DNA of 53,782 nucleotides from a virus: positions 1-53,782 of IMG/VR virus record IMGVR_UViG_3300033149_004295; one strand, 5' to 3'. The position numbers and the translations under genes are program-made. Position 1 is the stretch's first letter. The number at the start of each line of letters is the position of its first letter. Under the pieces are notes generated by a model that did not search any database, had not been told where the DNA came from, and worked only from the letters and a program-made list of their open reading frames with translations. This document shows positions 48,095 to 51,105 of the stretch, in pieces.

Positions 48095-48098
48095 AAAG

Positions 48099-48351
48099 GT
48101 GAGTGCCAAGGAAAAAGAGCGAGCCGAGATGGTAGAGAGTGCCAGTTGTGCAGGGCAAACCATGAGGCAAAAGAGCACCATTTAGAGAGAGTGAGTCAAA
48201 ATCCAAGAGCGCACCAGGGAGACTGAACGAGCCATCAATTAGGAACAAGCTATTCAACTCAAGCAAGTCGCAGAGAAGAGAGAGTACCACATCCAAAGAG
48301 CAAGCCAGAGGCCCTGAGAGAACTGCTCTCTTGGAGCGAGTTAAAAAAAAC
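48099..48351 (+). repeat. 18-bp phased repeat array, block 1 (14 units)
   Basis: Unit starts are 48099, 48117, 48135 ... 48261, then 48280 ... 48334 (one +1 slip). Cores alternate GAGAGTRCCA and GAGCGAGCCA. Confidence 0.9.
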
Positions 48352-48367
48352 GAAAGGAGAGGTAGCG

Positions 48368-49345
48368 TTGGCAGATTATAAAGATTACAACCAGGAACCT
48401 ATTGAGTTTGAGGTTATCAAGAGGTTAATCAAAGATTTAAGAACGGCGGCAAACAGGCTGTCCCCGAGCGACGTGAGGTACCTCGTAGACACTTACTACC
48501 AGATACAGGAACAGCGCAAGCGTGCCGCAAACCAGGTCAGGGCAGCCGGTGAAGCGGGAGAACCTAACGAGCTGGTTAACTGGATTTTTGACACATTCAA
48601 AAGAGTCGAGTATTACATCAAGAAAACGCTGGACACCTATACAGACTCGCATCCGATAGGGGTATGGTCAAAATCCATACACGGTATAGGTCCGGTAATA
48701 TCCGCAGGTTTATTAGCTCACATAGATATTGAGAAAGCTCCGACAGCGGGAGCTATATGGAGATATGCCGGCCTCGACCCTACCGCCAAGTGGGAAAAAG
48801 GGCAGGTTAGGCCGTGGAACGCAAGGCTAAAGACGCTGTGCTGGAAAGTCGGAGAGAATTTCCAAAGGGCATATAACAACCCCAAAGACATCTACGGCAA
48901 GATTTACAGAAAGAGAAAAGAGTATGAGTGGAAGAAGAACATGGCCGGAGACTATGCCATGCAAGCGGAAGAAAAACTTAAAGAGTACAACATAGGTAAA
49001 AATACGGACGCTTACAGACACTACTCAGGGCAGTACGATCCTTCTCAAGTAGTCAAAAACTGGAGCATTGAGCAGGGTATTCCCAATACCGAAAGCGGTC
49101 CCAAGCTGCCGCTTGTAGGTAAAGGATACGGCGTGCGCATGCTGCCGCCGGCGCACATAAACGAGAGGGCGAAGAGGTACGCGGTAAAGCTGTTTTTGGC
49201 CCACTGGCACGAAATGGCGTACTTGTATCGGTACGGAGAAATGCCTCCAAAGCCTTACTCGATAGCAATACTTGACCATGCACATAAAATAGAGCCTCCT
49301 AACAAGGAGATTATCTTAAAAGTTGTCAGAAAAGAAGTCTCTTAG
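48368..49345 (+). CDS. HhH protein matching only the C-terminal (Transposase_20-like) domain of IS110-family transposases; no DEDD/RuvC-like domain
   Basis: IHGIGPVISAGLLAHIDIEKAPTAGAIWRYAGLDPTAKWEKG parallels IS110 PGIGxxTAxxLLAxIGDxxRFxxxxxLxxYAGLxPxxxxSG, but with KG in place of SG. TTG start after an AAAGGAGAGG RBS. Confidence 0.5.
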   Translation: MADYKDYNQEPIEFEVIKRLIKDLRTAANRLSPSDVRYLVDTYYQIQEQRKRAANQVRAAGEAGEPNELVNWIFDTFKRVEYYIKKTLDTYTDSHPIGVWSKSIHGIGPVISAGLLAHIDIEKAPTAGAIWRYAGLDPTAKWEKGQVRPWNARLKTLCWKVGENFQRAYNNPKDIYGKIYRKRKEYEWKKNMAGDYAMQAEEKLKEYNIGKNTDAYRHYSGQYDPSQVVKNWSIEQGIPNTESGPKLPLVGKGYGVRMLPPAHINERAKRYAVKLFLAHWHEMAYLYRYGEMPPKPYSIAILDHAHKIEPPNKEIILKVVRKEVS

Positions 49346-49860
49346 CCAGCAGGGAAGAGAGTACCGCCTTATGAGAGCGAGCCAAAATTGAAGAGGGCAC
49401 CGCAAGGAGAGAGCGAGCCGTCAGCGTAGATAGTACCAAAATTCCAGAGCAAGCCACGAGCTTGGAGAGCACCAAAAGTTTGGAGCGAGCCAGACAGGAG
49501 GAGAGTACCACAGGGAAAGAGCAAGCCAGCAGGCGGAAGGGTACCAGAAGCCAGGAGCGAGCCACAAACAGCGAGAGTACCAAATTGCGCAAGTGAACCA
49601 GAAAAACATAGGGTGCCAAATTAGTAGAGTGGGCCGTATTTTCGGAGAGTACCAGGATTGCGAAGCGAGCCAAATTATGGGAGAGTACCAGGCAGTAAGA
49701 GCAAGCCAAACTGCATGAGAGTACCAGTAGGGCAAAGCGAGCCAAATTACGGGAGAGTACCAACGATTCGGAGCAAGCCAAACCACAGGAGAGTACCAAT
49801 AGGACAGAGCAAGTAGGATAAAGCAAGCCATTAGTTAGACGGAAGCGAAGCCATTGCCTC
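49339..49860 (+). repeat. 18-bp phased repeat array, block 2 (~28 units; 26 consecutive without a phase slip)
   Basis: Units start at 49357+18n for n=0-25. A degenerate unit at 49339 overlaps the last codons of the upstream gene. The first slip (-4) is at 49821. Confidence 0.95.
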
Positions 49861-49874
49861 TTAACACTCTTAGA

Positions 49875-49942
49875 CCAAAGGCCGCTTGCGCGGCCTTTGT
49901 TGGCCGTTTTTTACCGCTTTAGAGCGCGCCCGGATTGGTAAA
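49875..49942. repeat. 68-bp element, the inverted copy of 10680-10745. In this orientation the hairpin is followed by a U-rich tract, so it is terminator-like.
   Basis: ccaaaggccgcTTGCgcggcctttgttggccgttttttaccgctttagagcgcgcccggattggtaaa. Confidence 0.9.
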
Positions 49943-49999
49943 ATACGCGCCAATTGTACAATCGTACAACAATAAATATAAAAGCAAACCATTTGCTAC

Positions 50000-50156
50000 G
50001 AGAGTGCCAATAGATTAGAGTAAGTCATTGGACTAGAGAGTACCGTTTCTTCAGAGCGAACCGCAAAAGCGAACCACGAGAAAAGAGAGTACCATTCTTG
50101 CAGAGTGAGCCAAAATATCAGAGAGTGCCATTAGAAGAGAGCGAACAAAAAGGAGA
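50000..50156 (+). repeat. 18-bp phased repeat array, block 3 (9 units)
   Basis: Unit starts are 50000, 50018, 50036, 50054, 50067 (slip), 50085, 50103, 50121 and 50139. Confidence 0.85.
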
Positions 50157-50162
50157 ATACCT

Positions 50163-50309
50163 ATGGGTAGAGTACCGGTTTTTGATACGGAATGTCTTGA
50201 CTGGAGAAAAGTTGGAGACAAGTGGATAAAAGACCCGGGCTGGTGGAAAAAAGACAAAAGAAAACCCGGGAGAAAGCCGGGCAAAAACAGAGGCGAAAAG
50301 GAGAGATAG
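50163..50309 (+). CDS. Possible 48-aa basic microprotein embedded between array blocks
   Basis: My translation is MGRVPVFDTECLDWRKVGDKWIKDPGWWKKDKRKPGRKPGKNRGEKER. The AAGGAGA RBS lies 6 nt upstream. Below the track cutoff. Confidence 0.4.
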   Translation: MGRVPVFDTECLDWRKVGDKWIKDPGWWKKDKRKPGRKPGKNRGEKER

Positions 50310-50368
50310 GTCGGCTGGAGTTATCGTTTTTCACATTTTACCATATAGAAAGGATGTTTGCAAGTTTG

Positions 50369-51105
50369 AAGCGAGCCAATTCCGGGGAGAGTACCAGGGA
50401 CAAGGAGCGAACCAGATTCAGGGAGAGCACCAGGGGAATGGAGTGAGCCAAGGATTTCGAGAGTGCCGCGTCTCTGGAGCGAGCCATTTGCTGGGAGAGT
50501 ACCACTGTTTGAGAGCGAACCAGAGTTCGGGAGAGTACCACGGCTTTGGAGTGAGCCAAAAGTTAAGAGAGTGCCATAAAATAAGAGTGGTTCATCTAGG
50601 GAGAGAGTGCCAGAGGGAGTGAGTGGATCGCTTAAAATGAGCCATCCTCGGCAAGAGCACCAAAATAATTAAGCGAGCCACCAAGTTTGAGAGTACCAAA
50701 AAAGTGGAGCAAGCCATTTTAAGCGAGCCGTGTCTCACGAGCATGCCGAAGCGAGCCAACTCTTGCGAGAGCACCAAAGAATTAGAGCGAGCCGAGGGCA
50801 TAGAGAGTGCCGATACATTTGGGCGAGCCATTGGCAAAGAGAGCACCACAATAAAGGAGCGAGTTACAAGTGGAAAGAGCACCAGAGAACGGGAGCGAGC
50901 CAGGTAAGGGAAGAGTACCAAACTAATAGAGCGAGCCAGCGCGAGCGAGAGTACCATTGGATAAGGGCGAGCCATCGGTGAAGAGAGCACCAATATACGT
51001 GAGCGAGTCGTCATCTTGGAGGATACCAGAGGATAGTGAACCAGTCACCCGGAGAGCACCATTACGTGTGAGTGGGCCGTTTGCTAAAAGAGCACTATAA
51101 CATTA
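50369..51105 (+). repeat. 18-bp phased repeat array, block 4 (~42 units)
   Basis: In-phase runs are 50369-50621 (15 units), 50635-50707, 50721-50739, 50749-51019 (16 units) and 51034-51088. The A/B core alternation is preserved, and slips mostly fall at junctions involving B-type units. Confidence 0.95.

Follow-up and report, generated by a model that had tools for sequence, protein, structure and literature searches.

Four arrays of alternating 10-nt repeats beside a nuclease-free Tas gene: a probable TIGR-TasA system in a temperate-phage-like element

We analyzed a stretch of viral DNA of 53,782 nt (IMG/VR record IMGVR_UViG_3300033149_004295, positions 1 to 53,782; the whole stretch is hereafter called the window), in which four blocks of short phased repeats lie around and downstream of a gene for a 325-aa protein. 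These blocks and the gene, tasA, very probably form a dual-repeat TIGR-TasA system of a temperate-phage-like element of ~53.7 kb, a system that would perform RNA-guided DNA binding and repression aimed outside the element. A preliminary description, made from the sequence alone, had held that the blocks fit no known class and belong to an undescribed system. This claim has to be given up: the blocks match the dual-repeat TIGR arrays (Faure et al., Science 2025; PMC12045711), the protein matches NCBIfam NF052498, and the homologous arrays are part of a known element with a defined function, TIGR-Tas. The locus is a large new example of a system known since 2025, not an undescribed class.

The repeats are confined to a single region of the window. 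Autocorrelation peaks at lags of 18, 36, 54, and 72 in each of the four blocks, and identity at lags 18 and 36, calculated in 150-nt windows over all 53,782 nt, exceeds 0.45 only at ~47970-51105. Tandem Repeats Finder reports periods of 36, 72, and 108 for the region (36 and 72 at the second array, 36 and 108 at the fourth). Exact copies of the 10-nt cores GAGAGTACCA or GAGCGAGCCA number 20, all on the + strand and all within 48090-51110; over the whole window, none occurs outside these limits or on the - strand. With up to three mismatches allowed, the composite pattern GAGCGAGCCA-N8-GAGAGTACCA has 27 matches, again all on the + strand and all in the repeat region, compared with 0.01 +/- 0.10 matches in 100 shuffles.

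We parsed 89 in-phase half-units of 18 nt (40 of type A, 45 of type B, and four ambiguous), and an extra degenerate half-unit at 48081 opens the first block, giving 89-90 half-units overall. Information content in the half-unit is 1.0-2.0 bits over positions 1-10 and does not exceed 0.5 bits over positions 11-18. The unit thus has a 10 + 8 + 10 + 8 nt layout with two alternating cores and a true period of 36, and the autocorrelation, the Tandem Repeats Finder periods, and the 89-unit parse all agree with the ~90 phased 18-bp units of the preliminary description. Two finer claims of that description also hold, namely a run of 26 consecutive units without an indel (49339-49806, the longest stretch of unbroken phase) and the concentration of phase slips (steps of 10, 13, 14, 15, and 19 nt) at type-B units. 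The division into four blocks stands too, with altered boundaries: the first block begins at 48081, inside the 3' end of an Arg/Gly-rich (RG-rich) open reading frame (ORF), and the second effectively at 49344. The summed array length is ~1.7 kb (271 + 510 + 175 + 737 nt).

TIGR arrays are defined by two distinct alternating repeats of 8-12 nt, called edge and loop, with spacers of ~9 nt (Faure et al., Science 2025; PMC12045711). The blocks in the window, with two alternating 10-nt repeats, 8-nt spacers, and a 36-nt unit, agree with this definition. The experimentally validated SpTIGR array of Salicola phage CGphi29, which we read from NC_020844, has the composition AAGACAACCA-N8-AAGCGAGCCA-N8 and closes in GAGCGAGCC followed by a terminator. 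In Faure et al. (PMC12045711), the synthetic SpTasH tigRNA5 is given as AGCCA-CACGGCCU-AAGACAACCA-ACCGGAAC-AAGCG, which identifies AAGCG^AGCCA as the edge repeat and places the cut after G5. The supplement to the same paper names AG as box D and CCA as box C in arrays of this kind. Both cores of the window open with GAG and close with CCA (GAG....CCA). Homology to the CGphi29 array thus makes type B the edge and type A the loop repeat, with CCA as box C and AG as box D, and the mature guide is predicted to be AGCCA-N8-GAGAGUACCA-N8-GAGCG.

The correspondence with the Salicola phage system (SpTIGR-TasH; Faure et al. 2025; 9W02-9W04, 21KL) is close at the level of the repeats: both have the layout of 10-nt edge, 8, 10-nt loop, and 8 nt, and the SpTIGR edge repeat AAGCGAGCCA is nearly identical to G/AAGCGAGCCA in the window. 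The two also share box D (AG), box C (CCA), a truncated first edge repeat, and a terminator after the array. They differ in the loop repeat (AAGACAACCA in SpTIGR, GAGAGTACCA in the window) and in size, SpTIGR having ~11 units in one array and the window at least 38 units in four. These 38 complete guide RNA (tigRNA) units, which keep both boxes and exact 36-nt spacing, are distributed over the four arrays as 5 + 13 + 4 + 16. The second array, with its truncated first edge repeat, its terminal edge repeats, and its terminator, has the published TIGR anatomy (Faure et al., PMC12045711). Rfam gave no family for 47500-51500, even when permissive E-values were allowed. A 39-mer from the locus had no match in a metagenome scan, and neither the protein nor the repeats appear in the portion of the Faure et al. 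supplements that we searched.

The spacers are essentially all distinct from one another, and spacer-spacer similarity across the arrays is at the null level (30 similar pairs; 27.8 +/- 5.3 expected). We note higher-order periodicities of 72 and 108 nt at 49644-49798 and 50370-50575, with the repeat variants GAGCGAACCA, GAGTGAGCCA, and AAGCGAGCCA coming back at 72/108-nt lags and three spacer pairs at lag 72 that differ by no more than 2 nt. These are a hint of segmental duplication of two to three units followed by divergence of the spacers. With overall spacer similarity at chance, we make no claim that the arrays grew in this way.

The 325-aa protein encoded between the first two arrays scores 195.4 bits on NF052498 ("TIGR-Tas system RNA-guided endonuclease"; cutoff 100), above the experimentally validated SpTasH (118.9 bits). 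The preliminary description had tied the arrays to an "IS110-C-terminal-like" protein, and it is this protein that proves to be the Tas protein. In a single-sequence search of PDB, 9mty (E = 7e-13) and the TasH entries (E = 1.7e-10) come ahead of the IS621 and ISCro4 bridge recombinases, and a profile built from 27 family members finds TaTasR 9mty at 5.8e-23 and TasH at 1.6e-13. The 9mty chain was deposited as "IS110 C-terminal domain-containing protein", is titled TIGR-TasR among the fold matches, and has 331 residues, as TaTasR does. An AlphaFold2 model of the window protein (pLDDT 88.7, pTM 0.85) is all-helical apart from loops; when it is compared with PDB by Foldseek, the top 11 matches are all cryo-electron microscopy complexes of TasH or TasR (E = 3e-7 to 2e-4), followed by IS110-family recombinases.

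The window protein lacks the nuclease domains of its characterized relatives. Neither Pfam, nor the TasR alignment, nor the AlphaFold2 model reveals an HNH or RuvC domain: the alignment with TasR begins at TasR residue 123, past the RuvC domain, only ~45 residues precede the coiled coil, and the only Pfam match is a weak one to Transposase_20. The TasH and TasR subtypes have an N-terminal HNH or RuvC domain, which is absent here, and the lack of a nuclease domain makes the 325-aa protein a TasA, the solo-Nop subtype. NF052498 says "RNA-guided endonuclease" for all of its members, though TasA proteins have no nuclease domain.

A conserved feature at the C terminus bears on guide processing. Residues Y297 and H304 are invariant in two family alignments, and the motif PY297-x6-H304 aligns with Y289/H296 of SpTasH and with PY-x6-H of FpTasA. 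In SpTasH, Y289/H296 is reported to catalyze metal-independent processing of pre-tigRNA (PMC13421893; Xu et al., bioRxiv 10.64898/2026.09.09.750476). In the AlphaFold2 model, both residues of the window protein sit in a coil segment (290-313), the C-terminal loop. We take Y297/H304 to be the predicted pre-tigRNA processing dyad.

The relationship to IS110 concerns one domain. The score on NF033542 (IS110) is 23.7 bits, where the cutoff is 140, and only the RNA-binding domain aligns. The IS110/IS621 bridge-RNA recombinases have a homologous RNA-binding domain (Nop-like, Transposase_20), but they combine a DEDD/RuvC-like catalytic domain with a single bridge RNA, whereas the window protein has no such domain and is accompanied by arrays. 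With NF033542 below cutoff and no DEDD/RuvC-like catalytic domain, we rejected the identification as an IS110-family RNA-guided transposase. The homology of the RNA-binding domain accounts both for the "IS110 C-terminal-like" call and for "transposase" annotations. Such annotations are widespread: PHROG 4285 is filed under "integration and excision / transposase", relatives of the protein (P0028, P0077) are called "transposase" in NCBI/UniRef, and among >5,000 relatives at E <= 0.001, mostly of 260-330 aa, several are named "transposase" by the source records.

The features of the locus are as follows.

47106-47510, - strand: cI-like helix-turn-helix gene (Pfam HTH_3), divergent from the cro-like gene.
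47605-47910, + strand: cro-like HTH_3 gene, directly upstream of the RG-rich ORF.
47915-48094, + strand: 59-aa ORF, RG-rich, that follows the cro-like gene and runs into the start of array 1; strong ribosome-binding site.
48081-48351, + strand: TIGR array 1, upstream of tasA; ~14 half-units, five complete tigRNA units.
48368-49345, + strand: tasA, 325-aa ORF; coiled coil and Nop domain only.
49344-49853, + strand: TIGR array 2, downstream of tasA; 26 units in unbroken phase, 13 complete tigRNA units.
49877-49912, + strand: intrinsic terminator; stem AAAGGCCGC, loop TTGC, stem GCGGCCTTT, with an overlapping second hairpin and a T-run.
49935-49962, + strand: sigma-70-like promoter match (TTGGTA-16-TACAAT), 20 nt upstream of array 3.
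49982-50156, + strand: TIGR array 3; 10 half-units, four complete tigRNA units.
50163-50309, + strand: basic ORF of 48 aa that separates arrays 3 and 4 and shares its first codons with a degenerate loop repeat.
50369-51105, + strand: TIGR array 4; ~41 half-units, 16 complete tigRNA units.

On the + strand the order is thus cro-like gene, RG-rich ORF, array 1, tasA, array 2, terminator, weak promoter-like site, array 3, basic ORF, and array 4, followed by a block of GTAAAC iterons. The Pfam HTH_3 E-values for the cro-like/cI-like pair are 3e-13 and 8e-10. Array 1, the most degenerate, opens with an edge-like repeat (GGCAAAGCCA) that overlaps the stop codon of the RG-rich ORF, contains one 19-nt step (48261-48280), and ends 17 nt upstream of tasA. 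Array 2 overlaps the tasA stop codon; it opens with half an edge repeat, AGCCA (49344-49348), and closes with three degenerate edge repeats. In array 3 there is one 13-nt slip between two edge repeats (50054/50067), and in array 4 the slips gather at edge repeats (50585-50635, 50707-50749, and 51019-51034).

Since no terminator is predicted in the interval from the cro-like gene to tasA, the early transcription unit on the cro side plausibly takes in array 1, tasA, and array 2. The terminator scan has a match at 49890-49907, followed by TTTTT, within the hairpin after array 2, and finds no terminator after array 4. The promoter match at 49935-49962 agrees with the consensus at nine of 12 positions; the promoter count in the region is not significantly above shuffles, and this site is a possible but weak candidate for a separate promoter of arrays 3 and 4.

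The preliminary description had noted that the blocks are interleaved with an RG-rich microprotein and a small basic ORF. The RG-rich ORF, a putative microprotein, is RGG-like in composition. Neither of these ORFs nor the 186-aa ORF at 51414-51974 has a Pfam or NCBIfam match, and tblastn against 121 related loci shows no conservation of any of the three beside tas. The RG-rich and basic ORFs are therefore probably not components of the system, and we discarded an accessory role for all three.

Relatives of the protein are found in at least 499 IMG/VR viral contigs and 41 genomes (many bacterial phyla and a few archaea). With a crude period-36 detector, 95 of 123 loci have arrays next to the gene, and with a stricter chain detector 80 of 122 related loci do. 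The half-units found by the stricter detector share the strand of tas in 2550 cases and lie opposite to it in 14. In most loci the cores are GAGAGnACCA / GAGCGAGCCA-like, and the conservation of the cores is 0.89-0.92, with spacers at the background level. There is also covariation within the repeats: positions 3 and 8 of the 10-nt repeats form G-C in 24 cases, U-A in four, A-U in four, G-U in two, and C-G in one, so that they pair in 35 of 50 distinct consensus repeats (25.5 +/- 2.4 after shuffling, P ~1e-4). A Watson-Crick box C/D pair is present in the TasR structure (Faure et al., PMC12045711). The covariation, together with this match, indicates a constraint at the level of RNA and not of double-stranded DNA.

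These data bear directly on the possibility that the blocks are double-stranded DNA arrays bound by a protein encoded nearby, such as a giant centromere, handcuffing iterons, or a titrating decoy. The arrays do adjoin a clear iteron region and putative origin (51119-51387). Furthermore, in the closest relatives (loci L003, L004, L007, L012, and L364), tasA is directly preceded on its own strand by genes for ParA-type ATPases (AAA_31, CbiA, ParA) and then a small ORF, and tasParB-tasA operons have been reported (Faure et al., PMC12045711). However, Pfam, NCBIfam, and PHROG matches of the ORFs reveal no ParA or ParB near the arrays in the window. The repeats are homologous to arrays that yield 36-nt RNAs by RNA sequencing, and the co-orientation with tas across loci, the Watson-Crick covariation of positions 3 and 8, the terminator that closes array 2, and the RNA-binding Nop fold of the partner protein all argue against blocks that act as double-stranded protein-binding sites. 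We consider such a role of the blocks highly improbable. Among the roles that had been suggested for the blocks, the template of a long repeat RNA was essentially correct, while a centromere, a handcuffing array, a decoy, and proteins spiraling around the helix are not supported in view of the co-orientation, the terminator, and the covariation.

Still less credible is the idea that the repeats encode repetitive peptides. Since the period of 18 is divisible by three, stop-free frames pass through the arrays, and there are long ORFs, mostly on the - strand (49326-49826, 49421-49831, and 50592-51014). Yet conservation over 10 nt followed by variation over 8 nt does not resemble a codon pattern, the reading frames are lost at the slips of 10, 13, and 14 nt, the three ORFs have no Pfam or NCBIfam match, and the homologous arrays are known noncoding RNAs. 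On these grounds we give the idea almost no credence, in agreement with the preliminary description, which had judged the repeats noncoding.

As guide arrays, the blocks resemble CRISPR in that repeat-spacer arrays beside an effector gene are processed into guides. CRISPR arrays, however, have one repeat of 25-36 nt and spacers of ~30 nt, whereas TIGR arrays have two alternating 10-nt repeats and split 8-nt spacers, and TIGR spacers, unlike those of CRISPR, pair with opposite DNA strands. The flanking ORFs tested have no match to cas families in Pfam or NCBIfam, and there is no adaptation module. A CRISPR-Cas identity can thus be set aside, as the preliminary description had already concluded: the repeats are of two types and 10 nt long, the spacers are 8 nt, and no cas genes lie beside the arrays.

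Under the TIGR-TasA reading, the blocks would be arrays that give rise to guide RNAs from the + strand. A transcript that starts at the cro-side early promoter would probably cover array 1, tasA, and array 2 and stop at the terminator (49877-49912); for arrays 3 and 4, transcription may begin at the weak promoter-like site or result from read-through. By analogy with characterized systems, a TasA dimer, formed through the coiled coil, would bind the precursor, each Nop domain recognizing the box D (AG) and box C (CCA) that flank both repeat types. Y297/H304 would then cut in the edge repeat (GAGCG^AGCCA), and the expected product is a 36-nt tigRNA, AGCCA-spacerA(8)-GAGAGUACCA-spacerB(8)-GAGCG. 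Spacers A and B would pair with opposite strands of adjacent half-sites. The complex would bind and bend DNA and block transcription or replication, with no cutting, and the 38 intact guides would make up a multiplexed targeting library against DNA outside the element, in the host or in rival mobile elements.

The absence of a nuclease domain favors binding and block rather than cleavage, as with MbTasA, for which guide-dependent, reversible transcriptional repression has been described (Xu et al., bioRxiv 10.64898/2026.09.09.750476). Repression is the likely function, by analogy with homologues. TasA could instead act in DNA destruction if it recruited, in trans, a nuclease of host or phage origin, such as the Cas4-like exonuclease encoded at 1207-2205 in the same element. 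The NCBIfam family is named for an RNA-guided endonuclease, the relatives TasR and TasH cleave DNA, and Faure et al. (PMC12045711) leave the function of TasA open. On the other side, no nuclease domain is present in the window protein, no conserved partner gene was found beside tas in the relatives, and the catalytically dead TasRs that were assayed gave no cleavage, in keeping with a TasA devoid of any nuclease domain, and MbTasA repressed reversibly (Xu et al., bioRxiv 10.64898/2026.09.09.750476). Nuclease recruitment is therefore unlikely in our view, although it is the most probable of the alternatives considered here.

We searched for targets using the rule that the top strand consists of spacer A and then spacer B in reverse complement, as derived from TaTasR tigRNA1 and its target oligonucleotides in the supplement of Faure et al. 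Gaps of 0-3 nt between half-sites were all tried, to allow for different spacings with 8-nt ("N8A") spacers. The searches, as well as several properties of the locus, weigh against the TIGR-TasA reading or its details. None of 37 tigRNAs has a match with at most one mismatch in the window outside the arrays, so that no target was found there; with two mismatches, there are seven matches of correct geometry and five of wrong geometry, which is the chance level. In 1.03 Mb of related viral and genomic loci, counts are equal for the correct geometry and for three control geometries. Besides the targets, the characterized repressor MbTasA is in a stem-loop-type clade, and FpTasA is only ~29% identical to the window TasA. 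Some units may no longer function, given the degeneracy of array 1 and of parts of array 4, and the promoter assignments are weak. For transcription, processing, and binding in this element, we rely throughout on homologues.

The lack of findable targets is perhaps no surprise. Exact 16-mer scans of IMG/VR with one tigRNA gave at least 120 matches for the correct geometry and at least 120 for the reversed geometry; matches saturate in both, so such scans carry no information, a point also made by Xu et al. Undetectable targets are usual for TIGR systems (Xu et al., bioRxiv 10.64898/2026.09.09.750476). The absence of matches to its own genome suggests that the guides point outside the element.

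The missing targets, the degeneracy of array 1, and the several phase slips and truncated units of arrays 3 and 4 would also be expected of a decaying relic, in which arrays out of use persist as neutral repeats. Against such decay, tasA is intact and has every family-invariant residue, 38 units keep both boxes and exact spacing, and cores are conserved while spacers are at background; missing targets, moreover, are normal for TIGR systems. A relic is thus very unlikely, and an intact TIGR-TasA system is the reading that we retain.

Among known systems, the window combines features of several. With SpTIGR-TasH it shares the Y-x6-H processing dyad and a phage-borne location, but SpTasH has an N-terminal HNH nuclease and cuts DNA, and identity to the window protein is ~22-32% in the Nop core only. 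FpTIGR-TasA of Flavonifractor plautii (Faure et al. 2025) likewise has a solo-Nop TasA, dual-repeat arrays, and PY-x6-H, and FpTasA binds 36-nt tigRNAs (Faure et al., PMC12045711); its spacers are 9 nt and its box C is "CCN", compared with 8 nt and CCA in the window. TaTIGR-TasR (9MTY) is the best solved-structure sequence match and has in common with the window the Nop and coiled-coil core, the 36-nt tigRNA, and the tandem-spacer rule; its N-terminal RuvC nuclease, 9-nt spacers, and UG box D are absent from the window system. MbTasA and catalytically dead TasR (Xu et al., bioRxiv 10.64898/2026.09.09.750476) are Tas effectors without nuclease activity, as is expected of the window TasA. Xu et al. 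center on stem-loop tigRNAs and Tas proteins without the Y/H loop, whereas the window system is dual-repeat and has the dyad, and MbTasA is likened to it by description only.

In size the window locus is large but not unprecedented. Across the 80 array-bearing loci, the median number of half-units is 26 (interquartile range 18-43, maximum 114), and the window ranks fourth. The neighborhood of tas is heterogeneous. One relative (L366) has the same gene order as the window, from integrase through cI, cro, and small ORFs to tasA. When the ORFs in the 2 kb preceding tas are compared with Pfam for ~50 nonredundant loci, HTH_3 is present in four, YdaS in two, and ParA-like domains in four, with the rest diverse. 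A link to the lysogeny switch therefore recurs but was rejected as a general rule.

One relative deserves separate mention. Microcystis phage Mvi-JY20 (L002, PP438412.1), a cyanophage isolate, carries an unannotated TIGR-Tas locus (2893-3618 and ~3620-3960), in which a 241-aa "hypothetical protein" (XAI95461.1) scores 193 bits on NF052498. Downstream of the gene is an array with ATGCGAGCCA / ACGAAACCCA repeats and 9-nt spacers, with a terminator at its end. The literature that we searched makes no mention of this phage.

The remainder of the window is consistent with a temperate-phage-like element. The first ~115 nt are repeated exactly at the contig end (1-115 and 53668-53782), so the genome is probably complete, circular or terminally redundant, at ~53.7 kb; GC content is 44.7%. 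The element encodes an Ant antirepressor, a Sak4-like annealing protein, an endolysin, and tail-like and virion-like proteins. Two tyrosine recombinase/integrase genes are present, at 45867-46775, just upstream of the cI/cro switch, and at 35494-36399. The Cas4-domain exonuclease is a 332-aa ORF, and no CRISPR array was seen in a tandem-repeat scan of the window. A 422-aa ORF (10803-12071) has a C-terminal domain of the uracil-DNA-glycosylase superfamily and a weak match to a DNA-polymerase PHROG.

Two other repeat regions are distinct from the TIGR arrays. Downstream of array 4, at 51119-51387, there are 17 direct RTAAAC(C) repeats, all on the + strand and in three clusters, which flank an AT-rich core (~51280-51310); the region has a GC content of 32% and lies directly upstream of the 186-aa ORF. 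These iterons and the 186-aa ORF are probably a replication origin and its initiator, apart from the TIGR arrays. Far from the locus, two 168-bp tandem-repeat arrays at 17989-18978 lie inside a 534-aa ORF (17401-19005, - strand) that matches RCC1-like ("regulator of chromosome condensation") and tail-protein PHROGs. These appear to be coding beta-propeller repeats, probably of a tail-fiber or receptor-binding protein.

TIGR-Tas systems are compact, RNA-guided DNA-targeting systems that are free of a protospacer-adjacent motif; described in 2025, they are under development for genome editing and gene regulation. Standard annotation misses or mislabels them: Rfam has no array family, the protein goes under "transposase" in PHROGs and several source records, and NCBIfam applies the term "endonuclease" to a protein without a nuclease domain. 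The value of the present locus is that of a well-resolved natural TIGR-TasA in an apparently complete temperate-phage genome, with a clear operon context from the cro-like gene to the origin. Its 38 intact units, with guides that spare its own genome, are among the larger guide sets of the ~80 relatives.

The position of the module directly after cro and before the iterons, in what may be a control hub of the element, allows a tentative proposal, which we regard as possible rather than probable: the module may be a 38-guide exclusion/incompatibility or host-silencing device, expressed at the lysis-lysogeny decision, that keeps rival replicons or host genes from being transcribed or replicated, without cutting. 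The integrase-cI-cro-tasA order in L366 and the ParA genes in the closest relatives would fit a role in replicon competition or inheritance. The large guide set and the temperate-phage context could help to address what the natural targets of TasA are, and if the host can be identified, natural TIGR-TasA targets become testable at this locus.

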